DNA from: Patescibacteria group bacterium
GTDB taxonomy: Bacteria; Patescibacteriota; 4484-211
Assembly (NCBI GenBank): GCA_018818265.1
Contig: JAHISN010000057.1
Location: 1 to 36,835, forward strand
DNA length: 36,835 bases
Direction of reading: 5' to 3'
A program made the position numbers and the translations under genes. Below are positions 2,885 through 36,833 of the stretch, in pieces (within the stretch, counting starts at the first letter, position 1; each line of letters begins with the position of its first letter). Below the pieces are notes generated by a model. That model was given only the letters and a program-made list of their open reading frames with translations, was not told the DNA's origin and did not search any database.

Positions 2885-3429
2885 ATACTTCTCTCCAATG
2901 TTAATACAAAGACAATCTCATTTTTATCCAGTCTAAAGTCGCACAACTTAACAGTAGTACTCCGTATTTCCTCCCAATCATCAAGTACTGTTACCAAATT
3001 ATCTACCTGTTCAAGGGAATCTGTTTGGGCGACAAGTTCGAAAGTTAATGGAGTATTAACCTGATTTAAAGATAGCATACGCACGCCCGGAGGAAGTTTA
3101 CCATTAATACCGTCAACAAAATCTGCAAAGATTCCGCGCTCAACAAAATGTGTGCTCAGAAATTCAACTTTATCCTTTACAGTTAGTAACTTGCCCTCTA
3201 GTCGACGATTGTCTTCATTGTTTATAAATAAATTCTGTTCGATAATCTGAACCTGAAGACCATTCAAACGCTCACGCACCTGGCTATGATAAGTAAAAAC
3301 AACCAACACAGCACCAGCTAGTAGAAGAAGTTCACCAACGCAAATAAGATATATCCTTAGTAAGTGAGCTTTTTTACGATCACTTGCTTGATACTCTGTA
3401 GGAAGAAGATTAACACCTGAAGGGTTCAT
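2881..3429 (-). CDS. pilN: Type IV pilus assembly protein, PilN-like
   Basis: N-terminal VNLLP PilM-binding motif, TM, coiled coil, LPPGVRMLSL. Confidence 0.8.
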   Translation of the reverse strand: MNPSGVNLLPTEYQASDRKKAHLLRIYLICVGELLLLAGAVLVVFTYHSQVRERLNGLQVQIIEQNLFINNEDNRRLEGKLLTVKDKVEFLSTHFVERGIFADFVDGINGKLPPGVRMLSLNQVNTPLTFELVAQTDSLEQVDNLVTVLDDWEEIRSTTVKLCDFRLDKNEIVFVLTLERSI

Positions 3430-4484
3430 ATTCGTTTCAATCCTAAGCCTACCGCCACAGCAAAATGCGTTTGATTTTCGAGACGGTGAACATCTTCCTC
3501 AAACTGCGGTGGCACTTTGACATCAATCCATGGATCAGCAATCTGAACTTCAACTCCCAGGCTTTCCGCAAGATAGACAACCACACCCGGCAAACGTGCC
3601 GTTCCTCCAGTTAAAACCACTCGCTTAACAGGGTGCATAGGTTTCTGAGCCTGATATGATAAAATCGCTTTTTCTATCTCGTTCACAATAATATCAAATA
3701 CCGGCTTAATAACACTAACAACCTTGCCCCCTAATTTGTCTTCTAAAAGCCCATAAGCCCTCTTGTACTCTTCAGCCTGATCCTGCTCAAACCCAAGCTC
3801 ACGAGAAATTACCTTGGCAAGATCACTACCGCTGGTACCAATACTACGAGTGAACTGAATAATACCTTGGTCAACAATACATAAATCTGTAGCTGAAGCT
3901 CCTAAAGAAATAATAAGGGTCACTGGGCAATCTGATCCCTGAGGAGACAATGAACGCGCCATCCCAATAATCTCCGACTCAAAAGCTAATGGTTCCAATC
4001 CGGCCATCCCCAAAATGGTTATGTATCGATCTACAAGAGTTAAAGGGGCAGCAACAAGCAAAATTTTCATCCGCTTGCCTTTACCCCCATCCTGAGTGCC
4101 TGGGACGGTTCCATCTTCTAAAACCATCCAACTAGTCTTGACTTCATCTTTGGGAAGAGGAATAAAACGTTCGACCTCCCATTCCAGAGCGTTATGTAGA
4201 TCCTGCCCCTTAAGCGGGGGAAACTCAATTACACGAGTAAATATTTTAGCTTCGGGAAAAGCAGTAACTACCTTACGCGAGCGTACTTTTGCTTCTTTTA
4301 AAAGCATTTTAATTATTTTAGCAACCTTTTCCTGATCATCCTCTGCTTCTGATTGTAATACATTGAGAGGAGTATCCACGCTACCAAAAGCAACTAATTC
4401 AGGCTTTCCCTCACGGGGATGTAATATTTCCACGACTTTAAAACTGTAGGAACCAATATCTAAACCTAAAATTTGTTGTGTCAC
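3426..4484 (-). CDS. pilM: Type IV pilus assembly protein PilM (actin-like ATPase fold)
   Basis: LGLDIGSYSFKVVE; VVLTGGTARLPG; FAVAVGLGLK. Confidence 0.93.
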   Translation of the reverse strand: MTQQILGLDIGSYSFKVVEILHPREGKPELVAFGSVDTPLNVLQSEAEDDQEKVAKIIKMLLKEAKVRSRKVVTAFPEAKIFTRVIEFPPLKGQDLHNALEWEVERFIPLPKDEVKTSWMVLEDGTVPGTQDGGKGKRMKILLVAAPLTLVDRYITILGMAGLEPLAFESEIIGMARSLSPQGSDCPVTLIISLGASATDLCIVDQGIIQFTRSIGTSGSDLAKVISRELGFEQDQAEEYKRAYGLLEDKLGGKVVSVIKPVFDIIVNEIEKAILSYQAQKPMHPVKRVVLTGGTARLPGVVVYLAESLGVEVQIADPWIDVKVPPQFEEDVHRLENQTHFAVAVGLGLKRI

Positions 4485-5185: not shown

Positions 5186-7402
5186 CTATCTTCTGGCCTT
5201 TACTCCCAGCTTTGTCTCCAGCATTTTTACAGTTCTTTCGACTAATTTACTCACCTCCTTATGTGATAAAGAGCTTAGGGACGATTGAAAAGTGAGGTGC
5301 AAGGAAACGGATTTTTTGTCAACACCCAAATTATAGTCATCTGTGAAAATATCAAAAATCTTTACTTCCTGCAAAAACTTTCCGCCTTCTTCCTTAATCG
5401 CACGGAGTAAGTTACCTAAGTTATCATTTTTATTAACAATTACTGAAATGTCCTGCTTAATCTCTGGATGCGGAGAAACTGGCAAATACTCACTTCGAGA
5501 TTCACATAGTTTAATAATTTCCTCAAAATTAAGCACGGCGACAGATACTTGCGTATCAACAATCCCGAAATTTTGCAGTACTTTGTCACTGACAAGCCCG
5601 ATCTGTCCGATTTTGCTGTTTTTTGCAGTAATAGCGGCTTGGATATTTTCTGTTAGATAGGGAATCTTATCCGTCAACTCAAAAAGAATACTTTCTACAC
5701 CCAATTTTCTTAACAAATATTCTACTGCGCCCTTAAGCTCGATATATCGTTCCTGAAATCCAGCGTTTCTGGCAATCAAGAGCCCCAAATGTTCTGGTTC
5801 GTCGGGCAGTTCTCCTCTGGCCTTCGGTATTATATGACGGCCGCACTCGAAAAGTTTAAACTCGTTAATACGCTTAAGATTCTCTTGAGCTTTTTCTAGC
5901 AATCCGGGGATTAACGATTGACGCAAGAGCACATGTTCCGAAGACAAGGGGTTTTTAAGTCTTAAGTAATTTGACGCGTCCAGTTCGGCCTTTTGTGCAA
6001 TCACTTCATTAGTAAAACTGTAACTGTAAACCTCGTCGAACCCCAAAGCTGTGAGAACCGATTTAGCTTGACGCCTTACTATGACCCGCTGATTTAGACG
6101 CGGCGTGGTTAAATCCCGCACCGGCAGTGTGCCTATAATTCTATTATAGCCATATAAACGGGCAATTTCCTCCAGTAAGTCTTCTTCAATATTTAAATCG
6201 GCACGGAAAGTGGGAATCGTCACCTCCCAGTTGAACGCTTTACCTTGCTTGTAGTGGCGAACTTTAGTTCGCGTCTCATCGTGAGTGTGAGTAGTCTCAG
6301 TTGAGGTTTCCACCTTTAACCCTAGTGACTCTAGATATTCTTTGCCCCTCGCATCGGGCAAATTAATCCCCAGAAAAGTCCCAACTCGTTCGGGATTCAA
6401 AACAATAGCTTTTTCTTCTCGCGGCTGAGGGTAAACATCAACAACTTCAGATGTCAGTTTAGCGCCGGCATATTCCTGCAATAGTTTAACGCTTTCATTA
6501 AAACCCACTACCGCTAAATTGGGATCCTGATTCTTTTCAAAACGTGTAGAAGCATCGGTGCGTAAACCAAGTTTGCTTGATGTTTTACGGATCGAATACA
6601 TCTCAAAGTTAGCTGATTCCAAGACAATCAACTCTGTTATGTCATTAACCTCTGTTTCTTTACCCCCCATAATACCAGCAATAGCGACGGGTTTCTCGGC
6701 ATCCGCGATCACCATCGTGGTAGGGTTAAGCTGTCTATTCTTGCCATCGATAGTAATAATTTCTTCGCCTTCTCGCGCCTGCCTAACGATAACATTAACA
6801 TTTGACCATTGACCATTGACCATTGACTCAATATCTTTTTTTGCTAAAGGTTCGGATAGGGTTTTTATTTTTAACTTTTCATTTTTTCCGCCAGAGGCGG
6901 ACCAGCCTTTGGCTGGAACTTTTAACTTGCACGCGTTAAATGCGTGCAGCGGTTGCCCAAATTTCAGCATTACATAATTAGTGATGTCAACAACATTATT
7001 AATCGGACGAAGACCCATAGATTTGAGAAACAGCTGCAGCCAGTCAGGCGAATCTGTTACATTTACCTCAAGAATACCGCCGGTATAGCGGAAGCAACTG
7101 GAAGTTTGAATCTCAATGTCTAAAATAGGGGTCACCCCTAAAATAGGGGCGACCCCTAAAATGGGGGCGGCCCCTATTCCTAGACTGTAATACGCTGCAA
7201 CTTCTCGGGCGATTCCCCAGTGACTAAAACAGTCCGGGCGATGTGTTAGAGCTTTATTCTCAATCTCCAGAATGTAATCATCTCCAAACTTTTTAACCGA
7301 TTCTGTCTCGGCCAGTTTTATACTTAACTCGGCGGCAACTTCTTCGGGTGTCTTGCTCAGTTTTGGTAAAAACTCTTTGATGAGGTTATATGATATTTTC
7401 AT
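5186..7402 (-). CDS. pheT: Phenylalanine--tRNA ligase beta subunit (no B2 OB-fold; repeat-derived inserts)
   Basis: THRPDCFSHWGIAREVAA; INNVVDITNYVM..GQPLHAF; DLNIEEDLLEEIARLYGY; C-terminal FDX-ACB domain. Confidence 0.96.
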   Translation of the reverse strand: MKISYNLIKEFLPKLSKTPEEVAAELSIKLAETESVKKFGDDYILEIENKALTHRPDCFSHWGIAREVAAYYSLGIGAAPILGVAPILGVTPILDIEIQTSSCFRYTGGILEVNVTDSPDWLQLFLKSMGLRPINNVVDITNYVMLKFGQPLHAFNACKLKVPAKGWSASGGKNEKLKIKTLSEPLAKKDIESMVNGQWSNVNVIVRQAREGEEIITIDGKNRQLNPTTMVIADAEKPVAIAGIMGGKETEVNDITELIVLESANFEMYSIRKTSSKLGLRTDASTRFEKNQDPNLAVVGFNESVKLLQEYAGAKLTSEVVDVYPQPREEKAIVLNPERVGTFLGINLPDARGKEYLESLGLKVETSTETTHTHDETRTKVRHYKQGKAFNWEVTIPTFRADLNIEEDLLEEIARLYGYNRIIGTLPVRDLTTPRLNQRVIVRRQAKSVLTALGFDEVYSYSFTNEVIAQKAELDASNYLRLKNPLSSEHVLLRQSLIPGLLEKAQENLKRINEFKLFECGRHIIPKARGELPDEPEHLGLLIARNAGFQERYIELKGAVEYLLRKLGVESILFELTDKIPYLTENIQAAITAKNSKIGQIGLVSDKVLQNFGIVDTQVSVAVLNFEEIIKLCESRSEYLPVSPHPEIKQDISVIVNKNDNLGNLLRAIKEEGGKFLQEVKIFDIFTDDYNLGVDKKSVSLHLTFQSSLSSLSHKEVSKLVERTVKMLETKLGVKARR
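6251..6272. repeat. GTAG-initiated REP-like palindrome inside pheT
   Basis: GTAGTG-GCGAACT-TT-AGTTCGC. Confidence 0.65.
6802..6916. repeat. Heptamer arrays plus double hairpin inside pheT
   Basis: (TTGACCA)x3 at 6802-6827; TCCGCCAGAGGCGGA and CCAGCCTTTGGCTGG at 6887-6916. Confidence 0.75.
7121..7176. repeat. 3x 18-bp palindromic tandem repeat inside pheT
   Basis: TAAAATAGGGGTCACCCC / TAAAATAGGGGCGACCCC / TAAAATGGGGGCGGCCCC, encoding GAAPIL-GVAPIL-GVTPIL. Confidence 0.9.
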
Positions 7403-19422: not shown

Positions 19423-22400
19423 ATGAAAGATAAAAACCTGCCCGAAATAAATTATACTTCAGCCACCGTTCTCATTGCTGGAGCGGCTAACTTTGTCGGT
19501 TATCATCTAGCAGAATCTTTACTCATCTCCGATATTGCTGTTATTGGCATTGATAGTCTTATCACCGGATCAGAAGACATCATCACCAAGCTTTACAAAT
19601 ATCCACGCTTCAGCTTTTTTAAAGCCAATATCAACCAGCCCTTACCGGCCGCTCTTTATAAAGAGGATATTTCCCACATCGTTCATTTAGCTAATATCGA
19701 AGCGTGTGCCGAGCGTGGGATTTTACAACTCAACGAACTTCTAACCAATTCATTCGGTGTTAAAAATCTGCTTGACTTAAGCTTGGACAAAAAATCTGCC
19801 TTTATCTTTGCTTCAACAATTAATATTTACCAAGGGTTGGCCTCAACCACCAGTCTAACCCATTATTTTAACGGCGGAGATCTGGAGGACCGCCTCACCT
19901 ACGCCGAAGCCAAACGCTATGCCGAAAATCTCTGCCATGAATATGCCCAACTCTACAACACCGACATTCGCATTGCCCGTTTGTCGGAAATTTATGGCCC
20001 CCACATGAGCCTGAATCGGGGTACACCCTTTGCTCAACTTCTAGCCCAATTTTTAGCAGGGCAAAACTTGACTGTTTATGGCGATGGTTCTGATCATCTC
20101 TATCTAACTTATATTAGCGATACTATTTATGGTTTGGTAAAACTAATCTTCGCCCCTCCAGAAGTTGTCAGCCAAGGCATTTTCTACTTTGTTCAGCCAC
20201 AACAAGTAACTTTACTAGAAACCGCCCATGCTTTAGCTCATATTGACACACCACCACGCCAAATTGATCACGAATCCGCCCCTAAAATCAGCGCCGCCCT
20301 TAAGCCGCCGCAAATCGACCTTTCGCGCAGTAAGAAGGACCTTTACTGGGAAGCCAAAATCACTCTAGAAGATGGTTTCAAGCGCACCTGCGACTATTTC
20401 AACGCTCTCCCATCAATAGTCCCACCCGCCGAGCCTCAGGAAAAACCATCTGGAGAGGAAACGCCTGTCTCCCCTTCCACAGGGAGCCCTACACAAAAAG
20501 AAAGGAATTTTTCACAATACCGAGCAACTTTGCAGAAAACTACCGAAAGACTGGTCCAACCAGAATTGGAAACAACCCCACCCCAGCCCTCACTGCCTCA
20601 ACCATCTCTGGGAACTCGGCTAAAGGAGGTTCTTAAAACTCCTAGGCCACCCCACAAAACCGATCCTACAACAGAAACACACGGATGGCTAGATTTAAAA
20701 AAACAAGAGCAAGGTAAAGCCACTACAGCCCCTCATGATTCTAGGCAGAACTCAGCGACGCTTAGCCCCGCGCAAAAAACAGTTCCTGCTACTTCAACAC
20801 AAAAACACACACCCGAAGAGGCAGCTGAAATGGGCTATCTCGAAAGCCTTAAGCGTCCTTCATTATGGCAACGCTGGCGAAAAAGCATCTTTGTTTTTCT
20901 TACGATCGTGTGTTTCTTTCTGGCGCCCATAGCCCGGCCTCTTTACTTATCGTTCAATAGCTGGCAAACTGCTAAATCTGCCTGGGCGGCTCTCAAAATC
21001 GGTGATACACAAACAGCATCAGTCGAACTTTTAAAATTACAAGAATCCACCGCCGCACTCAAAACAAATTTAGATTCCTTACGGTGGCTAACATACTTTT
21101 TGGGTCAGAAAGAGCGCTATCAAGTCACACAGCAACTACTTTCGGCCAGCTCTTTTGCCATTGAAGGAGTATATCTATCTGTAGAAGCCCTTCAATCGGC
21201 CGAGGAACTACTTAGCACTGTGCAATCCGCATCTCCACCACTAGGAGGCGAAGAAGACAAAGAGATTAAGGAAACCGTCGAAATACTTATCAATAACATT
21301 ATTCTTAATTTTGATTCTGCCACTCAAAGATTTACTCTTGCCGAAACGGAGATAGACGGAACGGATCTGTCGATTTTTCCGGAATCACTAAAGCATATGG
21401 CAGAAGAAGGGAAATCTTTCTTAACCAATCTTAACCAAAATCTACCCAATGCCCAAGTTCTGTTAAAACAAACCCCCATTCTTCTTGGCCTAGATGAGCC
21501 GCATACCTTCTTAATTTTACTTCAGAATAATAGCGAACTCCGCGCCACCGGAGGTTTTATTGGCAGTTACGCCGTCGCAGACATGGTCCGGGGAAAACTA
21601 ACCCGCTTAAAAGTTGACGACATTTACAATCCTGACGGTCTGTTGGAAAACACAGAACCCGCGCCACAGCCTTTACAAGATAACTTGGGTGTTGATGAAT
21701 TAGGTATTCGCGATGCTAACTGGTGGCCGGATTTTGCGACCAGTGCCTCAAAGATCATTTCACTCTACGAGCAAGCTACTAAGGAAAAAGTGAAAAGTGT
21801 CATCGGTATTAATCTTTCAACTTTACAGAACCTATTAGCACAAATGGGACCGGTCTCCATACCTGACTATCAAGAAAGAATCTCTGCCGACAACCTGTTT
21901 GAAAGGGCTGAATTTCATAGCGAAGTTGGGTTTACACCCGGTTCGGACCAGAAAAAACGATTCTTAACCGCTTTAACACAAGAAATTTTAGCCAATTTAC
22001 TTAGCGCATCAACCGATACTAATTTAGGACTTAATAAATCAGCCTGGCAAGCAGTTGTCACAACTTTCGGAGAAGGTCTGAGCGGAAACGACATCTATTT
22101 ATTCTCTTCCTCAAGCGAGCTTGCCGACGCCTATAGTCAATTAGGATGGAATGGGAACCTAAAGCCTTTGCCTGTAGAAAAAGACTTTATCGCGGTCGTT
22201 GACTCAAATATCGGCGGCAACAAAGCTAACTTTTGGGTCAACAGAAAAACAAACTATCGTCTGGATATTGACAGAGAGGGGAATTTAAGTGGGGTTTTAA
22301 CTGTTAAATGGACTCACACCGGCACATCCGGCACTTGGCCCGGTGGCGACTACAAAAACTTTGTGCGTATTTATGTTCCCAAATATGCCAAACTACAAGA

Positions 22401-22749
22401 GGCCGAGGGATTTGTTTCCCAGCTTGAACCTTACACCGAATTTGAATACAAAGTCTTTTCTGGGATTGTTGAGGTTCCCGTCAATTCATCTCATCAAATA
22501 ACTTTAAAATACAACCTGCCGCCGGAAGTCGGCTTTAAAGATAAGAACACCTATGAGTTAACCGTGCGCCGACAAGCGGGTTTAGTAGGAGAAAGCTTTG
22601 TCTTAACCGCAGATCTACCAGCATTTCTACCAGCCCAAACACTTTCATCAGGAGAAATTGACAATAACTTAAATAAAATTTTGTGGGAAACTATACTAAA
22701 CACGAACAAGAGCACCGCTTTACTTGTAGCCGATCAAAAAGTAAAGTAG
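19423..22749 (+). CDS. Fusion: NAD-dependent epimerase/dehydratase-like domain, low-complexity linker, TM, DUF4012 domain
   Basis: IAGAANFVGYHL and YAEAKRYAE; Pro/Thr/Gln linker; TM; LLQNNSELRATGGFIGS, IRDANWWPDF, DSNIGGNKAN. Confidence 0.85.
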   Translation: MKDKNLPEINYTSATVLIAGAANFVGYHLAESLLISDIAVIGIDSLITGSEDIITKLYKYPRFSFFKANINQPLPAALYKEDISHIVHLANIEACAERGILQLNELLTNSFGVKNLLDLSLDKKSAFIFASTINIYQGLASTTSLTHYFNGGDLEDRLTYAEAKRYAENLCHEYAQLYNTDIRIARLSEIYGPHMSLNRGTPFAQLLAQFLAGQNLTVYGDGSDHLYLTYISDTIYGLVKLIFAPPEVVSQGIFYFVQPQQVTLLETAHALAHIDTPPRQIDHESAPKISAALKPPQIDLSRSKKDLYWEAKITLEDGFKRTCDYFNALPSIVPPAEPQEKPSGEETPVSPSTGSPTQKERNFSQYRATLQKTTERLVQPELETTPPQPSLPQPSLGTRLKEVLKTPRPPHKTDPTTETHGWLDLKKQEQGKATTAPHDSRQNSATLSPAQKTVPATSTQKHTPEEAAEMGYLESLKRPSLWQRWRKSIFVFLTIVCFFLAPIARPLYLSFNSWQTAKSAWAALKIGDTQTASVELLKLQESTAALKTNLDSLRWLTYFLGQKERYQVTQQLLSASSFAIEGVYLSVEALQSAEELLSTVQSASPPLGGEEDKEIKETVEILINNIILNFDSATQRFTLAETEIDGTDLSIFPESLKHMAEEGKSFLTNLNQNLPNAQVLLKQTPILLGLDEPHTFLILLQNNSELRATGGFIGSYAVADMVRGKLTRLKVDDIYNPDGLLENTEPAPQPLQDNLGVDELGIRDANWWPDFATSASKIISLYEQATKEKVKSVIGINLSTLQNLLAQMGPVSIPDYQERISADNLFERAEFHSEVGFTPGSDQKKRFLTALTQEILANLLSASTDTNLGLNKSAWQAVVTTFGEGLSGNDIYLFSSSSELADAYSQLGWNGNLKPLPVEKDFIAVVDSNIGGNKANFWVNRKTNYRLDIDREGNLSGVLTVKWTHTGTSGTWPGGDYKNFVRIYVPKYAKLQEAEGFVSQLEPYTEFEYKVFSGIVEVPVNSSHQITLKYNLPPEVGFKDKNTYELTVRRQAGLVGESFVLTADLPAFLPAQTLSSGEIDNNLNKILWETILNTNKSTALLVADQKVK

Positions 22750-25548: not shown

Positions 25549-27138
25549 ATGGTCATCAACTACAGCCACATCCGGTCTCTGGCGCTAATTTGTCTTGTTA
25601 TTCTCACTCTCCATCTTTCTTTCATGGCGCAAAATTTAAAAGAAAACCAAATTCTGTATGACTTCCAACCGCCCATAGCTTCCACCCCAAACCCGACATC
25701 AACACTGACGCTGACGCTGACGCTGACCCCGACTCCCAATCCCACGCCTAACGCCAACTACACCAAGCGCTTGACTGATCCTTGCTACAAAAATTGGCGT
25801 GCCAAGATTCCACAGGAATTGGCTCTAACCGAATATCTTTCCGTTATTAGTATTCCCGAACAAAAACACTACTTATTTAAAGACAAAGAACTGATTAAAA
25901 CCTACACCATTTCCACCGGCGCTGGAGAAAATGAAATGCCCGAAGGAATTTGGAGAGTAGGGGAGATTAGAGACTCTGGGTTAGGCGGCATTTACGGCCC
26001 ACGACTATTGTTTCTGGAGGTTTGGGACAAGAACCAATTTATTGAAACTACGCGGGCATTTCACGGGACGAACGAGCCAGAGAAAATCGGCACCAACTTC
26101 GGTCTCGGATGCGTCTATCACTATAATGAAGATATTTTAGAGATCTACGATCTTCTCCCTCCGGAAACATTAGTAGTAACTACTTACGATGACGAACCCG
26201 CCAACTGGGAAATTTTAATTGGGGGTACAGTAGTATTGTCTCGCGGGGTGGATGAGCGCATCCGCAAATATCAAAATGTGAATTACCCATGGGAGAAAAT
26301 TGATCGTTTAACCCAATCGGCCGATTTAACTATCATTAATCTTAAGTCGGCTTTTGTTGAAGACTGCCCTTATGTTTCCGACAAACCCGTTTTTTGTTCT
26401 CAAACAGCCTATGTCAATGGCTTGACTATTAATAACATAGATTTAGTCAGCTTGGCAGGCAATCACCTCGGCGACTATGGCATTGATGGTATTGAGTACA
26501 CACTGGACGTACTTAACAAGAATAATATTCTTTTCACTGGCGCAGGGAAAGATTCTGCTGAAGCTTACCAGCCACAGATTATCGAACTTGTTAACAGAGT
26601 ACCATGCGCCGCTCCTACAGAGCTATGCAGAGCAACAGAGGAGACTCTAAAGGTTGGTTTCTTCTCCTTTAATACCGTAGCCGGCACATCTCCCGCCGCA
26701 AAAGAAGACTCCACCGGTGTCGCCTGGTGGAATGAACAGAAGGTTAGTGAAATTATCAAGTCACTAACCCCCCACACCGACATCATCATCGCCATGCCTA
26801 ACTGGGGGCCAGAATACACTCACCAGCCCACTGACGACCAAGTTAGCATGGGACACCTGCTTGTCGACTGGGGTGTAGACATTGTTGCCGGAGATCAAGC
26901 CCATTGGATACAAAAATATGAAGATTATCAGGACGGCGTTATCTTTTATGGACTAGGAAATTTAATTTTTGACCAGATGTGGTCGGAAAAGACAAGACAA
27001 GGCATTTTAGTCAAAATAGTAGTTGATAAGGATAAGAACTTCAGCTACGAAAGTATACCGACAATAATAGAAGATTATGCCCAGCCGAGATTGGCAAATT
27101 CGGAAGAGTCGAAAACTATCCTACGACAAATTGAGTAA
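25549..27138 (+). CDS. Membrane-anchored L,D-transpeptidase (YkuD) and CapA/PGA_cap fusion
   Basis: N-terminal TM, PT linker, ISTG..PEG.W, FHGT..GCV; SLAGNHLGDYG, WGPEY, FYGLGNLIFDQ. Confidence 0.85.
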   Translation: MVINYSHIRSLALICLVILTLHLSFMAQNLKENQILYDFQPPIASTPNPTSTLTLTLTLTPTPNPTPNANYTKRLTDPCYKNWRAKIPQELALTEYLSVISIPEQKHYLFKDKELIKTYTISTGAGENEMPEGIWRVGEIRDSGLGGIYGPRLLFLEVWDKNQFIETTRAFHGTNEPEKIGTNFGLGCVYHYNEDILEIYDLLPPETLVVTTYDDEPANWEILIGGTVVLSRGVDERIRKYQNVNYPWEKIDRLTQSADLTIINLKSAFVEDCPYVSDKPVFCSQTAYVNGLTINNIDLVSLAGNHLGDYGIDGIEYTLDVLNKNNILFTGAGKDSAEAYQPQIIELVNRVPCAAPTELCRATEETLKVGFFSFNTVAGTSPAAKEDSTGVAWWNEQKVSEIIKSLTPHTDIIIAMPNWGPEYTHQPTDDQVSMGHLLVDWGVDIVAGDQAHWIQKYEDYQDGVIFYGLGNLIFDQMWSEKTRQGILVKIVVDKDKNFSYESIPTIIEDYAQPRLANSEESKTILRQIE

Positions 27139-29505: not shown

Positions 29506-31581
29506 TCACTTCGCCTGCTTTATCGACAAATTAATACGATCGCGGTCATCAATATTAATCACTTTAACTCTCACCTTGTCACCTTCTTTGATATGATCGT
29601 GAATCTTATCAATAAACTGATCGGTAATTTCGGAAATGTGCACCATTCCCTCTTTACGCGGGAGGATCTCTACAAAAGCACCAAAATCAAGAACCCGCGT
29701 TACCTTGCCATCATAAATTTCCCCAATTTTGGCCTCCTGATCAAAACTAGCTACCCATTTCTGCGCTTGCTCCACTTTATCAAGATCTCTCCCCGAAATC
29801 ATTACCCGCCCATCATCTCTAACATCAATTTCTGTTTCTGTTTCTTCCTGGATAGCGCGAATTGTTCCGCCGCCCGGGCCGATAATTTTACCAATCTTAC
29901 TTGGATTGACTTTAACAGTTATAATGTGCGGCGCATACTCGGAAAGTTTTTCCCTAGAAGAAGAAATCACCTTACTCATCTCCTGCAATATATGCAAACG
30001 TCCGGTACGTGCTTGTTTTAGTGCCTTGGTAAGCAAATCCATATTCATACAGCCTGTTTTTACATCCATCTGCATCGCTGTAATGCCACTTTCCGTTCCC
30101 GCAACTTTCAGATCCATGTCGCCATAAAAATCCTCTAAGCCCGCAATATCGGTAAGAATAAGATTTTTATCCCCTTCGCTTATTAAGCCCATGGCTACGC
30201 CTGCAACAGCGGCTTTAATCGGCACACCGGCATCCATGAGAGATAACGATGAGCCACAAACAGAAGCTTGCGATGTTGAACCAGCCGAGGATAAAACTTC
30301 GGAAACTACACGAACAGTATAAGGAAACTCCTTTTCGGAAGGTATCACTGGGAGTAAAGCAGTCTCCGCCAGCGCCCCATGACCAATCTCCCTGCGACGG
30401 GGATAGCCTAAACGCCCACACTCCCCGGTACTAAAGGGCAAAAACTCATAATGGTGAATGTATCTCTGGGTAGTTTCACCGGTCATTGTCTCAATTAACT
30501 GCTCTAAGGATGTTGACGCTAATGTAACCACCGAGAGGACTTGAGTCTGTCCACGCTTGAATAAAGCAGAACCGTGAACACGCGGAAGTAGACCGATTTC
30601 AATTTCTAAAGGTCGAACCTCATCCAAAGCACGTCCATCAAAACGCTTATTTGATTCCAAAACGCGCCGGCGCATCGTTAGCTTTAGCTGATCATCAAAC
30701 AACTCATTCATCTGACTCTTTCCAATCTTGCCCTCAAACTTCTCAAAAAGAAGTCCTCGAAATTCTTCCTGCGCATCATCACGCACAGAGTGGTCTTGGT
30801 GCAGTCCGTCTTCAGGAAAATTATCCTGCACAAAACTAATGACTTGCGCTTTGACTTTTAGGTCAATCTCCGGCGGCTTATAATCAACAACCGGTGTGTC
30901 CACTTTAGAGGTAAAATCCTCAATAAAGTCTAGCATTGTCTCTAAATGCGGCTGGGCAAACTGCACTGCTCCGATAACCTTCTCTTCCGAAGACTGTTCG
31001 GCTTTAACTTCGAGCATCAGCATACTTTCCCTGGAAACTACCAATAGTAAATCTAAGTCAGAAAACTCGCATTCCGCTCCTCGTGGATTAAGAAGATAGT
31101 TGCCGTCGTTGAGACCAATCTTTACTGCCGCTACTGGCCCCTTCCAAGGGAGACCAGAAATTTTTAGCGCAGCAGAAACTGCGGTTAGAGCCAAAAAGGT
31201 TAAGTCGTGTCCTGGCTCAAACGACAAGATGGTAACGATTATCTGAATTTCACTACGAAGATCTTTAGGGAAAAGAGGACGAATGGAGCGATCAATTGCG
31301 CGCGCTTTCAAAATTGCCAGCTCTGAAGGGCGACCCTCACGTTTAACAAAACGAGAACCTTTAATTCTACCGCCAGCATAGAACTTCTCCTCATAATCAA
31401 CTATTAAAGGCAAATAACCCCGATCTTCTCCACTATCGGAAAAAACCACAGTAGCTAGAAGAGTAGAATCGCCGTGACTGGCTAAAACTGCCCCATTCGC
31501 TTGCTCGGCCAGTTTGCCAGTTTGCAGAGTAAGTTCCTGGTTTGAAATATTGATACTATTTTCGATAACTTTTGAATTCAT
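29506..31581 (-). CDS. pnp: Polyribonucleotide nucleotidyltransferase (PNPase)
   Basis: RAIDRSIRPLFP; RFDGR; HGSALFKRGQTQ; RREIGHG; GDMDLKVAGT; KH and S1 domains. Confidence 0.97.
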   Translation of the reverse strand: MNSKVIENSINISNQELTLQTGKLAEQANGAVLASHGDSTLLATVVFSDSGEDRGYLPLIVDYEEKFYAGGRIKGSRFVKREGRPSELAILKARAIDRSIRPLFPKDLRSEIQIIVTILSFEPGHDLTFLALTAVSAALKISGLPWKGPVAAVKIGLNDGNYLLNPRGAECEFSDLDLLLVVSRESMLMLEVKAEQSSEEKVIGAVQFAQPHLETMLDFIEDFTSKVDTPVVDYKPPEIDLKVKAQVISFVQDNFPEDGLHQDHSVRDDAQEEFRGLLFEKFEGKIGKSQMNELFDDQLKLTMRRRVLESNKRFDGRALDEVRPLEIEIGLLPRVHGSALFKRGQTQVLSVVTLASTSLEQLIETMTGETTQRYIHHYEFLPFSTGECGRLGYPRRREIGHGALAETALLPVIPSEKEFPYTVRVVSEVLSSAGSTSQASVCGSSLSLMDAGVPIKAAVAGVAMGLISEGDKNLILTDIAGLEDFYGDMDLKVAGTESGITAMQMDVKTGCMNMDLLTKALKQARTGRLHILQEMSKVISSSREKLSEYAPHIITVKVNPSKIGKIIGPGGGTIRAIQEETETEIDVRDDGRVMISGRDLDKVEQAQKWVASFDQEAKIGEIYDGKVTRVLDFGAFVEILPRKEGMVHISEITDQFIDKIHDHIKEGDKVRVKVINIDDRDRINLSIKQAK

Positions 31582-31627
31582 AAGATTGGAGAATTATATC
31601 ACAAGCCCCCAAACAACTTAACAAAAC

Positions 31628-31680
31628 AGTTAATTGGTTAATTGGTTAATTAACCAGTTAACTAGTTAACAAATTAACTT
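31628..31680. repeat. Self-complementary octamer array
   Basis: GTTAATTG GTTAATTG GTTAATTAAC CAGTTAAC TAGTTAAC AAATTAAC. Confidence 0.75.
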
Positions 31681-31753
31681 CGTGGGGATACAGCAGATAT
31701 TTTCCAGCAAACACCGACCGAAAAACCCGAAAGATGATTCCCAACCCAACCGG

Positions 31754-32026
31754 TCAACTCTTCTTTAACTTTAGCTTTTCCATCACCATTTTGTACCTTT
31801 CTAGACTTTTCCTCCTGAGATATTTAAGAAGCCGCTGGCGCCTGCCAACCATTCGCAGTAATCCGCGGCGCGAGTGATTATCGTGCCGGTGCTCCTTAAG
31901 GTGCTCGGTAAGTGAACCAATTCTACTTGTCAATAGGGCAATCTGTACCTCCGGCGACCCGGTATCGTCCGAATGTACTTTAAAATCTGTTATTATTTTG
32001 GTCTTATTGTCTTTGTTTAGAGACAT
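31754..32026 (-). CDS. rpsO: 30S ribosomal protein S15
   Basis: [44 protein letters not shown]; start at ATG 32026. Confidence 0.97.
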
Positions 32027-32036
32027 GGCGGAAAAC

Positions 32037-32070
32037 AGCTTTGTAGCTTCATTAGCTTCATTAGCTTTTT
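32037..32070 (-). repeat. 9-mer AAGCTAATG array in the rpsO leader
   Basis: AAGCTAATG AAGCTAATG AAGCTACA AAGCTG. Confidence 0.75.
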
Positions 32071-32304
32071 GGGTTTCAGTTTTTGCGAACCCATTCATTA
32101 TACACTCGTTTAACAATGATACCACACTTACAACCCAGCATACTACCCATAACTAACCAAAATGTCAAACCTGTAAGATAACTCTAAACCCGCACCCTAA
32201 GCCTACAAGGAGTAGGGTAGAGTGTCAAGCAGAAAAATCAAAGCGCAGGTAACCAATTAACCTGCTTCGGAAAAGTAGAAAACAACTCGACCGTAATCAA
32301 TTCG

Positions 32305-32847
32305 TTATGCTTCCTCAGTAATCAGTACATATCCATACACAAACCACCAGTAAAAAAGCAACCAGACAATAAAAACAAAAGCGGCAAAATAGTCGTGGAA
32401 AATAATAGCAAAAAGCTGACTGCTATAAATAGCAAGTAGAACTGTAATCGCCATACGAACCAAGTTAACCACGAAAGTTCCTAAAATGCCAATAATAATC
32501 GCCTCTACCTTGGACCAGCGCGTAAAATTGCCCTGCAAACCACCAATGAAAGTAACAAGCAACAGCAACATCCCCTGCCAGCCGATACAGTTCCAGGAAA
32601 GATGCACATAAATATCGTTTATAATCATCCCATCGGGCACGGCAACAAAATCCAGATTAAAGGGAAGAAGCAAAACTCCAATAAGTTTAACCTCTCCGGG
32701 CACGATTATTTTCTCAATAATCTGATACAGCCTAGTACTTTCCACGATGCGGGTCATCAGTTCGTTAAGAGTGGTCACAAAAGGCAGTATTGCCAAAATT
32801 ACCGCGGCGAGGATGAAAATTGTGAGAAAAGTTTGTTTTTTATGCAT
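32305..32847 (-). CDS. Exosortase/archaeosortase family protein
   Basis: Multi-TM protein with the Cys-Arg-His triad context: SWNCIGWQG, VNLVRMA, IFHDYF. Confidence 0.85.
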   Translation of the reverse strand: MHKKQTFLTIFILAAVILAILPFVTTLNELMTRIVESTRLYQIIEKIIVPGEVKLIGVLLLPFNLDFVAVPDGMIINDIYVHLSWNCIGWQGMLLLLVTFIGGLQGNFTRWSKVEAIIIGILGTFVVNLVRMAITVLLAIYSSQLFAIIFHDYFAAFVFIVWLLFYWWFVYGYVLITEEA

Positions 32848-32850
32848 AAG

Positions 32851-32885
32851 GCGTAAGTTACTTAAGATACTTAGGTTTCTTACGA
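32851..32885. repeat. 9-mer (TAAGwTACT) array, copy 1
   Basis: GCGTAAGTTACTTAAGATACTTAGGTTTCTTACGA; 32/35 identical to 33084-33118. Confidence 0.85.
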
Positions 32886-33443
32886 AACACGCCTCGCGCG
32901 CAAGCGGCGATGGTAGAGGTTCTCGGCATAACCACCTTCAGTTTCGTGTTTTTTCTCCAACGATTTTACTTGCCTATACAATAAGTAAGTGGCCTGGTGG
33001 CATAGAGTTAACAGTAGGTTAGTCGCTTCTTCAGGGTCCTTGGGCAGCTTTAGCCGGGCCAAAAGCGCTTGCGCTTTTGGCTCGCGTAAGTCTCTTAAGA
33101 TACTTAAGTTTCTTACGATTCGCGCGCTCCGCGCGCGAAACACTCGCACACGCGGATCGTCTTTAGACCACTGCGAAAGTTTCCGCTGTCTCAGAAAATC
33201 CTCCAAGTTTCCCAGAAGCTCCTCAATACTAGCCTTGGCCACATTAGTCAGCTTAATGCCTGTCTTTAGACTGGTAGCCATCCCCTCTGAGCCCTCAACA
33301 ATGTTTTGTTTGCCGCTACGGGCGGCGCCATTCATCTGCTCCTTTAATTTCCAACTCCTGACCCAACGCTCACAAAACTCGACCGTTAGGTCGTAAATAA
33401 TCAGCGCGAACCAATATGTAAAGAGTTTTTTGTAGGGTTGCAT
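32880..33443 (-). CDS. Four-helix-bundle protein (23S-IVP/Avd-like family) with suffix domain
   Basis: YKKLFTY...IYDLTVEFC; EQMNGAARSGKQNIVEG; KLTNVAKASIEELL...EDFLRQR; NLLLTLCHQATYLL.RQ..LE.....EGGY.E.L. Confidence 0.88.
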   Translation of the reverse strand: MQPYKKLFTYWFALIIYDLTVEFCERWVRSWKLKEQMNGAARSGKQNIVEGSEGMATSLKTGIKLTNVAKASIEELLGNLEDFLRQRKLSQWSKDDPRVRVFRARSARIVRNLSILRDLREPKAQALLARLKLPKDPEEATNLLLTLCHQATYLLYRQVKSLEKKHETEGGYAENLYHRRLRARRVS

Positions 33444-33508
33444 CGTAAGTCCTGCCCTGAACCGAGCTTGCTCTGGTTCGGGGCTCCTAAGATACTTAAG
33501 TTACTTAA
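33444..33508. repeat. 9-mer array copy 3, interrupted by a hairpin insert
   Basis: CGTAAGTC[CTGCCCTGAACCGAGCTTGCTCTGGTTCGGGGC]TCCTAAGATACTTAAGTTACTTAA. Confidence 0.75.
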
Positions 33509-36500
33509 CCATCTTATGCTTTTTTCTTTTCTTGCGCAAAGCTCCGGGTACAAAAAATACCACGCTCATCAACAACCATAACCTTTCTGGAATAACCACC
33601 AAGGTCTGATCAGTACTAGCCACATTGGCAAGATACTGCAGAATCAGCATATCGGTTCTAATTAAATTCTCTACCGGACTGGTGGTGTAGGTTCCTGATG
33701 AAGCATTAAGCGAGGCTCTGATGTAATAAAGGTCGGTCGAACCATTGACTGAGTATTTGCGCCAGTTAGTCGGATTGGCGGTCCAATAAACCGCGCCGTC
33801 TTGAGTGAGGTTGCTGGTACCATCAGTAAAGCCGGTGATTGATTCAAGACTGGCCCAGGCAGTACCGTTCCAATATTCCCAATCTAGATTTAAAGTTCCA
33901 CCGGTAGCACCAGCAGTTTCAAGGTCAACATTCACTCCCGAAAACATAGAGTCGGCGCTAAAGAAAACATATTCCCCCCTATTTGAGGCATCAACCGGCA
34001 CAAAGTCCAAAGTATAATCTTGGGCTTCGGAGAAAAGGTATTCGGAAGAATCGGCTGTATTGCCGCCTTGGGCTAAGGTAGTTGGCTCATCATCGCTGCC
34101 GCCAAAGATCATGATTTCGTCATAAATTCCATCTGCATGGTCACTAATATTAGTGTTGTCAAAATATATTGTTCCATTATCAATATCAAAAGTATTTTTA
34201 AAATCGTCATTATGGGAATGGGTTGGCTCTTGGCCGTTAATAAATATTCTTAGTGTCTCGCCTGATGAAGCTCCTGAATCCCAAGTAACCCTAAGATGTA
34301 CCCACTCTCCAGCAGTAAAGGAATAATCGGTGGGAGCAATCAAAGTATGGAAATAGTCGGCGGCGCCTTGCTCTCCATAGACAAATAAATCATTGCCATC
34401 AACCGCATTTTCTTTAGATAAAACCAAGTAATCGCCTGTTACCGCATCTCTAGCTCTAAATAAGTGATGGAGTAATCCATCAGTATGGCTCCAATTGGGT
34501 TTAAACCAAAATTCTATTGAGCCATTGATTTGGTCAAAATTAGAACTAATATCAGTAATTTCGATTTCGTCATCTGAAGCATTCACCCGGAATCCGTTCC
34601 CGTATTTACCGGGCACAATATCATCTGATTCTATGGTAGCTGTGCTGTAAGTAGTGCCCACGTCCGGAGTAGATATGGCTGAAATGCTTTCACAGCTTGA
34701 GTACCATAATAGCTCGTCGGCAAAATAAGCGTCGGAAATAGGCACATAGTCCACATTATAATCCGTCCCTTCGGTCAGACCTGAACCCTCCATAGTGACT
34801 GAAGAAGGCTTGTCATTCAATTGATACTTTCTAATCTTGTACATCGGTTTATGGCGGTTCATTGAAGAAACCACCGTTCCAATGGCATGGCCGATAACAG
34901 AAAGTTCTCCGCTGGCAGGGATACCAGTAAAGGTAGTCGCCGTTGTGCCCGTATAGGAAAACTTGTCGCCGTCAATATAGGCCACGCTGGGAGCGGTAGG
35001 AAAACCGGTAGTTGAACCAACCGTAATCGAGGTAACACCGGCAACTACCGCCGTGGTGGCAACAGCCGTCGAAGCATTTGCTCCCCCATCAATATCCAAA
35101 TTCACTTGCGAGCCCGAAGCCTCAACCGTATAAACTCCTTCGGCTTCGTTGTAGTGGTCAGGGATGAAGCCGGTGGTCCAGGTGGGTGTACCATACAAGG
35201 TACAATCATTATTGTTGCTTGTTTCATCATAATGAGTAGTACCCGTATTTTCGTCTACTTTCCAATATCCCACCAAATTAGACTCGTTGCCGGTTAACTC
35301 CTTATACATATTTTGTTGAAGATCACTAGCTGACCTCACCGTACTCCACATTCTCCCCTCATCCAGAACCCCGTAAAAGTTAGCCCCAAACCGAAGATTA
35401 CTAAGCGCATCACTCCCAGGTGAACCAACTCCTGCCCCGGAAGTCGCCACATTTACTCCATTCTGAAAAAGTCTAACAATATTATCTGCAGTACTCCAAG
35501 TCATGGTCACATGAACCCATTGCTTGGTCGGAATAGCAGTCGTAGTAACAGCCTCGGCATCCGTATCAGTATAATCAATGAATCCGCTTAAATACCCAGT
35601 AGTAGCATTAACTCTAAGCCGTTTGGTGGCTAAATTCTTATAAAAGATTGAACGATTAGTAGCGTCAATAGCTTCAACATATATCCAAGCTTCCCAAGTC
35701 AAGGCGGTTAAATCATTAATTGAAGAATCCAGCCCACATTCAGTGTAATAACCCAAAGTAGAAGGAAACTTCAACCCCGGGGAGGCAGGCGCATCATTCC
35801 ACTCACTCCCAGTAGTAAAATCCAAAATATCCGGGTTTCTGAAGTCATTGATATAGCCTTCCCGCTCGGCTTCAGTATCCAGATCGTCTTCGGCAAGCAT
35901 CAGGAAAAACCACTTGGCATAGTGTTTACCAATGGTTAGATGATCTTGTTCCCGGGTAGTAATCAAATCTTGGGTTGTTCCTCCGGAAATAACATTGTTT
36001 TCATCCCAAGCCCAAGTATCAGAACCACCGGTATCATCGTACCAACCAGCTCGCATTACACCAACAAAGGCATCCTGGTAGGTATCTGAGCCGGTACCGG
36101 GAAGGACCACATATTTATTGGAATCTTCAAACACTGCCCCGTCAGTGCTTGTATTGCTTTCTGTGCTTCCATCTCCGTAAAGAATAGTAGGGGTAGCAGT
36201 ATCGTCAAAAGCAGCATCAGTTACGTCAGCATATACTCCCAGCCAGTCGTATCCATTTAAACCAACAGCGGTATCTAGGGTTATTCCCGTACTTCGGAAG
36301 TCAGTCATTGTTTCCACAAACATGCCTTCCGTAGTAAACGTGTAATCCTCAACAACTGTAATTTTATCCGTTCCATCGGTTAAGCAAGCTCCTCCGGCAG
36401 CAGTATCAAAACAACCCTCAACTCTTATTTTTACACGGACACTGCTCGATTCTAAAATAGTAGTTGTCCTAGAGGCATCCCACCGCAACAAATACCTTAC

Positions 36501-36833
36501 AGTCGCCTCTACTATATGGGGGCCAACTATTTCATGAGTAGGATTGGGACTGCTATCACTCTGAGCTCGGTCATAGAACAATATATAATCTTGAGTGTCC
36601 CCCGTCTCCATAATCGCCCGGTAGCGATTGGGAACATCGATTTGGATAGAACCTTCGGAAAGACGGATTGCCTCTGAAGTAATCACAAAAGTCTGGTCAT
36701 TGGTAGAAATGTCACCCAGGTATTGGAAAAGGAGAATGTCGGTCCATGCTCTTTTGATCACCGGCGCAGTAGTATAGGCCCCTGAAGAAGTACCTCTCAC
36801 CCAATAAAGAGTTCTCTCGCCGGTGGAATCACC
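33501..36833 (-). CDS. Large acidic Thr/Asp-rich surface protein (5'-truncated by the window edge) with two LamG-like domains and a C-terminal sorting signal
   Basis: Frame stays open to the window edge (GDSTGERTLYWVRG...); LamG motifs TWEAWIY..WVHVTMTW..LDEGRMW and SIEFWFKP..WVHLRVTW..YDEIMIF; ends IPE-hydrophobic-RKKRKKHK. Confidence 0.88.
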   Translation of the reverse strand, partial: GDSTGERTLYWVRGTSSGAYTTAPVIKRAWTDILLFQYLGDISTNDQTFVITSEAIRLSEGSIQIDVPNRYRAIMETGDTQDYILFYDRAQSDSSPNPTHEIVGPHIVEATVRYLLRWDASRTTTILESSSVRVKIRVEGCFDTAAGGACLTDGTDKITVVEDYTFTTEGMFVETMTDFRSTGITLDTAVGLNGYDWLGVYADVTDAAFDDTATPTILYGDGSTESNTSTDGAVFEDSNKYVVLPGTGSDTYQDAFVGVMRAGWYDDTGGSDTWAWDENNVISGGTTQDLITTREQDHLTIGKHYAKWFFLMLAEDDLDTEAEREGYINDFRNPDILDFTTGSEWNDAPASPGLKFPSTLGYYTECGLDSSINDLTALTWEAWIYVEAIDATNRSIFYKNLATKRLRVNATTGYLSGFIDYTDTDAEAVTTTAIPTKQWVHVTMTWSTADNIVRLFQNGVNVATSGAGVGSPGSDALSNLRFGANFYGVLDEGRMWSTVRSASDLQQNMYKELTGNESNLVGYWKVDENTGTTHYDETSNNNDCTLYGTPTWTTGFIPDHYNEAEGVYTVEASGSQVNLDIDGGANASTAVATTAVVAGVTSITVGSTTGFPTAPSVAYIDGDKFSYTGTTATTFTGIPASGELSVIGHAIGTVVSSMNRHKPMYKIRKYQLNDKPSSVTMEGSGLTEGTDYNVDYVPISDAYFADELLWYSSCESISAISTPDVGTTYSTATIESDDIVPGKYGNGFRVNASDDEIEITDISSNFDQINGSIEFWFKPNWSHTDGLLHHLFRARDAVTGDYLVLSKENAVDGNDLFVYGEQGAADYFHTLIAPTDYSFTAGEWVHLRVTWDSGASSGETLRIFINGQEPTHSHNDDFKNTFDIDNGTIYFDNTNISDHADGIYDEIMIFGGSDDEPTTLAQGGNTADSSEYLFSEAQDYTLDFVPVDASNRGEYVFFSADSMFSGVNVDLETAGATGGTLNLDWEYWNGTAWASLESITGFTDGTSNLTQDGAVYWTANPTNWRKYSVNGSTDLYYIRASLNASSGTYTTSPVENLIRTDMLILQYLANVASTDQTLVVIPERLWLLMSVVFFVPGALRKKRKKHKMVK

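Follow-up and report, generated by a model that had tools for sequence, protein, structure and literature searches.

We analysed a 36,835-nt stretch of DNA (the window) from a Patescibacteria group bacterium (GTDB lineage Bacteria; Patescibacteriota; 4484-211; assembly GCA_018818265.1, contig JAHISN010000057.1), and found at its right end a compact 180-residue protein of the exosortase/archaeosortase family together with a very large protein that carries a tripartite C-terminal signal. Judging from sequence comparison, the two belong to a cognate enzyme/signal pair, and this pairing is well supported by adjacency in related loci, by co-occurrence across genomes and by natural gene fusions. We put at roughly three in four the probability that the enzyme acts on the [VI]-P-E/helix/basic tail of giant membrane proteins and cuts at or near the VPE. 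A cognate pair had been proposed in an earlier reading of this DNA alone (the original prediction), and it is borne out by the comparisons presented here.

The window is one entire contig (C7) of a genome assembled into 89 contigs (1.19 Mb, 97.75% complete). The nearest named relatives of its proteins are found in candidate division CPR3 and other Patescibacteria, in agreement with the earlier description of the genome as resembling the candidate phyla radiation (CPR). In the list of open reading frames (ORFs), three genes follow one another on the minus strand at the right end: a 5'-open cargo ORF, cut by the contig end so that the C-terminal 1110 residues remain (33501-36833); a four-helix-bundle gene of 187 aa (32880-33443); and the 180-aa ORF of the proposed sorting enzyme (32305-32847). 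All the parts that had been described from the letters, namely a large ORF with LamG, a tripartite tail and a 180-aa enzyme downstream on the same strand, are present.

The 180-aa enzyme

The 180-aa protein scored 34.8 bits against TIGR04178, the exosortase/archaeosortase signature (cut-off 23), over residues 84-169, and is the sole match to this model in the genome; all 32 homologues aligned with it matched the model as well. The EpsH family was defined by the motifs Cys-x-Gly, Asn-x-x-Arg and His-x-x-x-Gly (available portion of PMC1569441), and the Cys/Arg/His triad of the family is discussed in the available text of a 2023 Haft preprint. In the window enzyme the corresponding contexts are WNC(87)IG, N(128)LVR(131) and H(151)DY, with minus-strand codons at 32587-32589 for Cys87, the proposed nucleophile, at 32455-32457 for Arg131 and at 32395-32397 for His151. 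The three residues are invariant in the alignment of the 32 homologues, where the invariant columns include W85, N86, C87, G89, N128, R131, H151, D152 and Y153. The third family motif is kept for its His only, Ala standing in place of the Gly in the window enzyme. By these likenesses the 180-aa protein is identified as a compact exosortase-family cysteine enzyme.

Among the named subfamilies checked in NCBIfam 20.0 (ArtC, XrtM, XrtX, XrtG, XrtR, XrtS, XrtY, CrtC and thaumarchaeosortase), none was passed, and the scores of the window enzyme were far under the cut-offs (ArtC 20.7 against 100, XrtM 19.4 against 125, XrtX 13.7 against 170 bits). The Pfam model Exosortase_EpsH (PF09721) gave 16.5 bits, under its gathering score of 25.7. 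For the 32 relatives, the best named-subfamily E-value was 5.3e-9 (ArtC), bit scores not being listed for these members. The enzyme is accordingly a compact family member that passes no named-subfamily model, in line with the original prediction. Public records already label such enzymes "exosortase/archaeosortase family protein", and a profile search of 1.84 billion cluster representatives returned 611 matches at E<=1e-3, 214 at 1e-10 and 88 at 1e-30.

An AlphaFold2 model of the enzyme (predicted local distance difference test 82.3, predicted template-modelling score 0.75) has about five helices, at residues 2-36, 39-63, 90-103, 110-141 and 144-174, and a small three-stranded sheet directly before Cys87. 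In this predicted model the triad sits near helix ends. A sequence search of the PDB with the enzyme gave no match at E<=1, Foldseek with the model gave none at E<=0.001, and a wide VIA-align structure search returned generic helical bundles only (best Z 8.2).

At one related locus (L086) the enzymes are twinned: a second sortase-like ORF lies directly after the cargo, and the matched one is 2.8 kb downstream (3155-3742 and 6001-6471).

The C-terminal tail and its pairing with the enzyme

The cargo ORF of the window ends in VVIPERLWLLMSVVFFVPGALRKKRKKHKMVK, which is made up of VVIPE, a hydrophobic helix with a conserved second Pro, and a Lys/Arg cluster. With its stop codon this signal spans 33501-33599 on the minus strand; the end at 33593 that had first been assigned to it is 6 nt short. 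We built a tail profile of 36 positions from 44 tails located just upstream of relatives of the enzyme, none of them from the window genome. An earlier strict tail pattern had found the window protein alone, missing the second carrier on contig C31, and the first regular expressions missed tails with a charged or polar residue in the helix; the profile was used instead.

In the window genome the profile matched 2 of the 2612 ORFs of at least 80 aa, both at their C-termini. The window cargo scored 30.2 bits (E 3.9e-8), with the match ending 3 residues from the C-terminus. The other is a protein of more than 1384 aa at the end of contig C31, with the tail IVVPEYLLMFVLFAPLFPGLFKYAKKRW... (24.3 bits, match ending 9 residues from the C-terminus); the next-best score in the genome was 8.7 bits. 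The two proteins have no similarity outside the tail. A scan for further IPE-tail proteins, which the original prediction had suggested, has thus yielded one more, and the genome holds one sortase and two tail-bearing proteins.

Across 52 tails, the alignment has Val or Ile in 46, Pro in all 52, Glu in all 52 and then Asn, Lys or Arg in 37, although the invariance of the Pro and Glu is partly by construction, a P[ED]-hydrophobic-basic pattern having served to pick the profile seeds. In 41 of the 52 there is a second Pro, 14 positions on from the first, and the hydrophobic columns lead into a Lys-rich basic cluster. The family-wide motif, as read from this alignment, is [VI]-P-E-[NKR]. The proposal of a variant tripartite tail with an IPE(R) motif therefore stands for the tail, but the motif of the family is broader than IPE(R).

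No curated NCBIfam or Pfam model catches this tail properly, as had been anticipated, and the window tail is unmatched by TIGR02595 and PF07589. TIGR02595 (PEP-CTERM) weakly matched 2 of the 52 tails (best E 0.0075), PF07589 matched one (E 0.28), and the Firmicu-CTERM model matched none. The available text of the Haft preprint describes what marks such sorting signals. The tails share about three near-invariant residues, a hydrophobic helix and a basic cluster, and they recur on unrelated proteins (two here) or regularly adjoin the enzyme (43 of 79 loci), as that text would have it. The N-terminal signal peptide that it places on most carriers was not seen on most of these; the N-terminus of the window cargo lies off the contig.

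Several variations on the tail were seen. At four loci (L024, L025, L034 and L089) it extends 20-35 residues beyond the basic cluster, with a common RGPP/RGPG/RGPT ending that may be a second, cytoplasmic signal. One cargo (L050:2052-2264) carries tandem tails (…FSTLPEN… and …FETVPEN…, 30.0 and 24.2 bits against the profile). In the window, a module that precedes the tail (…SG.YTT.PV…D.L.LQYL…DQT.V…, about 33600-33790 on the minus strand) recurs at about 36660-36833 on the same strand, at the start of the fragment. This upstream copy lies about 1050 residues earlier and is followed by ITSE in place of IPER; the same internal repeat was seen when the fragment was compared with its orthologue in genome G002.

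The pairing of tail and enzyme was examined in 79 loci encoding relatives of the enzyme, from 65 assemblies (mostly Microgenomates-type Patescibacteria going by record titles), with a tail called at a profile score of at least 12 bits. Homologues had been proposed as the place to look for a shared neighbouring tail, and it was found there: 59 of the 79 loci have a tail upstream on the same strand, within 250 nt in 43, at 250-1100 nt in 11 and farther in 5. None of the 79 has a tail downstream of the enzyme or on the opposite strand, and a regular-expression control found no such tail in 241 downstream or opposite-strand ORFs of at least 150 aa. Among the 20 tail-less loci, the upstream DNA is shorter than 540 nt in 8 and 2 kb or longer in 12. 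In one sister genus (G003), 5 nt separate the end of the orthologous tail (…TDQTLVVVPERL…) from the enzyme gene.

Tail and enzyme also occur fused, in both orders. In six representatives the enzyme domain comes first and is followed by about 250 residues ending in VV[PSD]E-helix-basic, and in three proteins it comes last, after an ectodomain and a VPEN-helix-basic tail; in two of these three a family 2 glycosyltransferase (GT2) domain stands ahead of the ectodomain.

Across the phylum, an even set of 301 genomes was searched: 12 have the enzyme (E<=1e-10), and the tail (E<=1e-3) was found in 8 of these 12 against 1 of the 289 others. In three more of the enzyme-bearing genomes (G105, G126 and G145) the enzyme gene is directly preceded by an IIVPE-helix-basic tail to which the profile gave a weak score or none; counting these, 11 of the 12 carry the tail. 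In the lone tail-only genome a contig ends in a fragment of the enzyme, and one genome (G217) has three sortases, each adjoining a tail. The Fisher p value of this table (2.9e-12) is descriptive only. The informative part of the co-occurrence is the scarcity of tail matches in genomes that lack the enzyme.

These counts bear on the simplest alternative, namely that the tail is an ordinary C-terminal membrane anchor whose nearness to a sortase-like gene reflects chance or simple synteny. Such a view would fit the gene that separates cargo and enzyme in the window, as well as the separate contigs on which they lie in G002. It is already contradicted, and we consider it very improbable, because of the locus, fusion and genome counts: 59 of 79 loci have the tail upstream on the enzyme's strand and none has it elsewhere, it is fused to the enzyme in both orders, and the single match among 289 enzyme-less genomes comes from the genome with a sortase fragment. 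The tail is, moreover, common to otherwise different cargo bodies.

Several observations weigh against the proposal that the enzyme recognizes and cuts this tail. Twelve loci have at least 2 kb of upstream DNA and yet no tail, and no tail was found in the sister genome G001 (95% complete, 90 contigs), the only one of the 12 enzyme-bearing genomes of which this is true. In G002 the enzyme and the cargo are unlinked, on different contigs. The counts, like the Fisher p value, are descriptive because the genomes are related and some of them gave rows to the profile, and the constancy of the Pro and Glu is in part built in, as noted above. The enzyme has about five helices against at least eight in EpsH, and misses the Gly of His-x-x-x-Gly. 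Finally, the cargoes are unusual carriers of a sorting signal: only 5 of 24 complete cargo ORFs have a hydrophobic window within their first 75 residues, so that the cargoes are not classical signal-peptide proteins, and they would be membrane-bound anyway through the helices of a synthase.

Giant cargoes and a possible mechanism

The 1110-residue fragment in the window contains two stretches of Laminin_G_3 (PF13385, 75.8 bits), a concanavalin-like lectin fold; the best-scoring stretch covers fragment residues 375-505, which we computed to lie at 35319-35711 on the minus strand. The fragment is 58% identical to residues 2513-3578 of a 3587-aa tail-bearing protein in G002, which represents another sister genus. 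This protein has two helix-turn-helix (HTH) regions (HTH_Tnp_1 and HTH_28), a GT2 domain at residues 480-865 with hydrophobic segments flanking it on either side, and a Laminin_G_3 domain at 3240-3397. The best named relatives of its GT2 domain are PgaC/IcaA and cellulose synthase, all below the cut-offs. By alignment with this orthologue, the window cargo is the C-terminal third of a fusion of about 3,600 aa that joins two HTH regions, a GT2 synthase and an ectodomain. The large adhesin or lectin of the original prediction is therefore right as to its LamG domain, but the protein is not just a lectin.

Elsewhere in the genome are two N-terminal fragments truncated at contig ends, one of 1053 aa on contig C51 (two HTH regions and a GT2 domain) and one of 2589 aa on contig C49 (HTH and GT2). 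With the two tail-bearing fragments on C7 and C31, these two heads fit two giant genes broken by the assembly. C51 probably pairs with C7, a match that rests only on likeness to the G002 orthologue; the ends of C51, C49, C7 and C31 share no overlap of 15-300 nt.

The same architecture recurs among relatives. Of the 24 complete cargo ORFs, 23 were scanned with Pfam (L085, a near-copy of L078, was left out). A GT2 domain was found in 16 of the 23, and 13 of those 16 also begin with HTH domains, while one (L082) carries a receiver and an MshEN domain in place of the HTH. The remaining seven are short ORFs with no Pfam match, and six of them are immediately preceded on their own strand by GT2-like DNA. 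Where the upstream DNA of a locus exceeds 3.5 kb, it contains same-strand GT2-like DNA in 32 of 44 cases. It is unusual for a membrane polysaccharide synthase to begin with a DNA-binding head. The two HTH domains that head the giant synthases are of a transposase type, with weak IS481/IS3-like matches (L100:1907-2506; L024, L041, L049 and others), and the MshEN domain of L082 is of the cyclic di-GMP (c-di-GMP) type.

These observations suggest the following model, in which the substrates in the window genome would be the LamG protein two genes upstream of the enzyme and the second protein on C31. Each cargo would be one chain composed of cytoplasmic HTH domains, a processive GT2 synthase held in the membrane by multiple helices, then a very large ectodomain and, last, the tail, whose helix would bring the chain back to the membrane with the VPE at its outer face; that the VPE is outside and the Lys/Arg cluster inside is suggested by the positive-inside rule and by family precedent. 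By analogy with ArtA/PGF-CTERM and XrtA/PEP-CTERM, the Cys87-Arg131-His151 site may then cut at or near the VPE, which would take off the helix and the basic tail. The C-terminus thus created on the ectodomain could be freed, or passed to an acceptor, for instance a lipid or the glycan made by the synthase. Because the synthase helices would hold the protein in the membrane, cleavage is expected to free or transfer the distal end of the ectodomain and not to release the protein.

It is possible that no cutting takes place, and that the small protein is a permanent, non-proteolytic partner of the synthase that docks the last helix of the cargo, like the accessory subunits of other polysaccharide synthases. 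Fusions in both orders keep tail and enzyme in one chain, which fits a stable association; the synthase helices keep the cargo in the membrane regardless, and the enzyme is much smaller than the characterised exosortases. We regard this possibility as distinctly unlikely, however, since the three residues that define the catalytic site of the family are invariant, and since conservation in the tail falls on a short polar motif at the edge of the membrane and not on the helix, a pattern expected of a processing site.

If the enzyme does cut, as we favour, it may do so for release only: the distal end of the ectodomain would be set free and would not be joined to any lipid or glycan. The support for tail recognition is the same in this case, nothing in the analysis points out an acceptor, and whether archaeosortase is a one-step transpeptidase is still treated as open in the available text of the Haft preprint. 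That text also ties ArtA processing in Haloferax to lipid attachment, which argues for transfer, and the constant fusion or adjacency to GT2 (in 16 of 23 cargo ORFs, with GT2-like upstream DNA at six of the other seven) suggests a link to a glycan. Cleavage without transfer thus strikes us as a serious contender, though not a probable one.

Of the candidate acceptors, the system's own glycan product is the most interesting, given the constant fusion to a processive GT2. One speculative scheme, which we think improbable, is that of a self-contained maker of protein-glycan fibres: the GT2 domain would extrude a polysaccharide, the mini-exosortase would act as a transpeptidase that joins the ectodomain C-terminus of the same chain to the glycan or to a lipid-linked precursor, and the HTH (or the receiver-MshEN head in one relative) would couple the process to DNA or to a cytoplasmic signal. 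Were this scheme true, the partner fused to the system would itself make the acceptor that has long been sought for exosortases.

Exosortases are widespread, yet their substrates and acceptors are largely inferred. The present system offers an unusually simple test bed, with an enzyme of 180 aa, one or two substrates per genome and a sharp [VI]PE tag, and the polysaccharide synthase physically fused to the substrate hints at what the acceptor might be. The CPR/Patescibacteria, whose cell-surface biology is poorly known, thereby gain a conserved surface-building module; a part for it in attachment to host cells, as raised in the original prediction, would be speculative. A new pair of models, one for this enzyme branch and one for the tail, would name hundreds of proteins that are now described by family only or as hypothetical.

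Neighbouring genes and comparison with known systems

The gene between cargo and enzyme encodes a member of the 23S rRNA intervening sequence protein (IVP) family with a four-helix suffix domain (TIGR04258, 58.1 bits against a cut-off of 40; TIGR02436, 27.5 against 24). Its presence qualifies the dedicated adjacent pair of the original prediction: the two partners are cognate, but this gene intervenes, and the genome has two tail proteins to one sortase. A fresh insertion of the gene was ruled out for this family, because a gene 75% identical to it directly follows the orthologous cargo in G002 (L100:12730-13305), the cargoes themselves being 58% identical. Small four-helix or GxxExxY-like genes flank the enzyme elsewhere, at L022 and L067 by Pfam and at L017, L040, L060, L063 and L084 by eye. 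On C31 (L105, 121-2389, minus strand) the second cargo precedes an unassigned 201-aa gene, a gene for an AbiEii-type toxin and a ComEA-like gene with SLBB/HHH; in G002 a ComEA-like gene also comes after the cargo and the four-helix gene. At loci where cargo and enzyme are not adjacent, the genes between them include those for an IS200-type Y1 transposase, a DUF3800 protein and a beta-lactamase-family protein (among L020:1136-1789, L072:2038-2700 and L037:2127-3098).

On the window itself, rpsO and pnp come after the 180-aa ORF, and the remainder of the contig consists of housekeeping genes. A promoter and terminator scan of 31500-33700 gave a number of sites not above that of shuffled sequence. 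Two unusual fusions were also seen on this contig. One (1108 aa, 19423-22749, plus strand) combines an NAD-dependent epimerase with DUF4012, and the other (529 aa, 25549-27138, plus strand) a YkuD L,D-transpeptidase with a PGA_cap capsule-synthesis domain.

A literature search, weak on subscription journals, found no description of exosortases in CPR bacteria, of this enzyme branch or of this tail. The closest known system is XrtG of Firmicutes, with PEP-CTERM/EpsH next. The XrtG set of L. plantarum comprises a Firmicu-CTERM protein, exosortase G and two XrtG-associated glycosyltransferases, according to the available portion of PMC12854382. Like the system described here, it is found in hosts with a single-membrane cell envelope and is a small gene set with an exosortase-family enzyme, a protein with a C-terminal tail and GT2 glycosyltransferases. 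Weak XrtG matches were found in 10 of the 32 relatives of the enzyme, and the model for XrtG-associated glycosyltransferases was weak on one of six cargoes scanned (TIGR03111, 26.2 bits against a cut-off of 364). The window enzyme, in contrast, has no XrtG match at E<=1, the tails escape the Firmicu-CTERM model, and glycosyltransferase and tail protein are here one giant polypeptide with HTH or receiver domains ahead of them.

With PEP-CTERM/EpsH (XrtA) the system shares a tripartite tail with a Pro-Glu core after Val or Ile, an enzyme with Cys-x-Gly, Asn-x-x-Arg and a conserved His, and a tie to exopolysaccharide synthesis (available portion of PMC1569441). It differs in that the second Pro of PEP is missing, the window tail reading P-E-R and the position after the Glu being N/K/R in most tails, and TIGR02595 recognizes few of the tails; in its smaller enzyme, which stays under the gathering score of PF09721; in having one to three cargoes per genome against a median of eight; and in that most cargoes are without an N-terminal signal peptide. 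Archaeosortase A/PGF-CTERM of Haloferax volcanii belongs to the same superfamily and follows the same tripartite tail logic, and ArtA is the one branch for which removal of the helix and lipid attachment have been reported (2023 Haft preprint, available text). Its motif, however, is PGF, its enzyme is larger, and it has many substrates and no synthase fusion; among the named archaeosortases, the best match of the window enzyme is to ArtC, and that far below the cut-off. The module is thus an uncatalogued variant of a known protein-sorting system, one that recurs widely in the CPR group.

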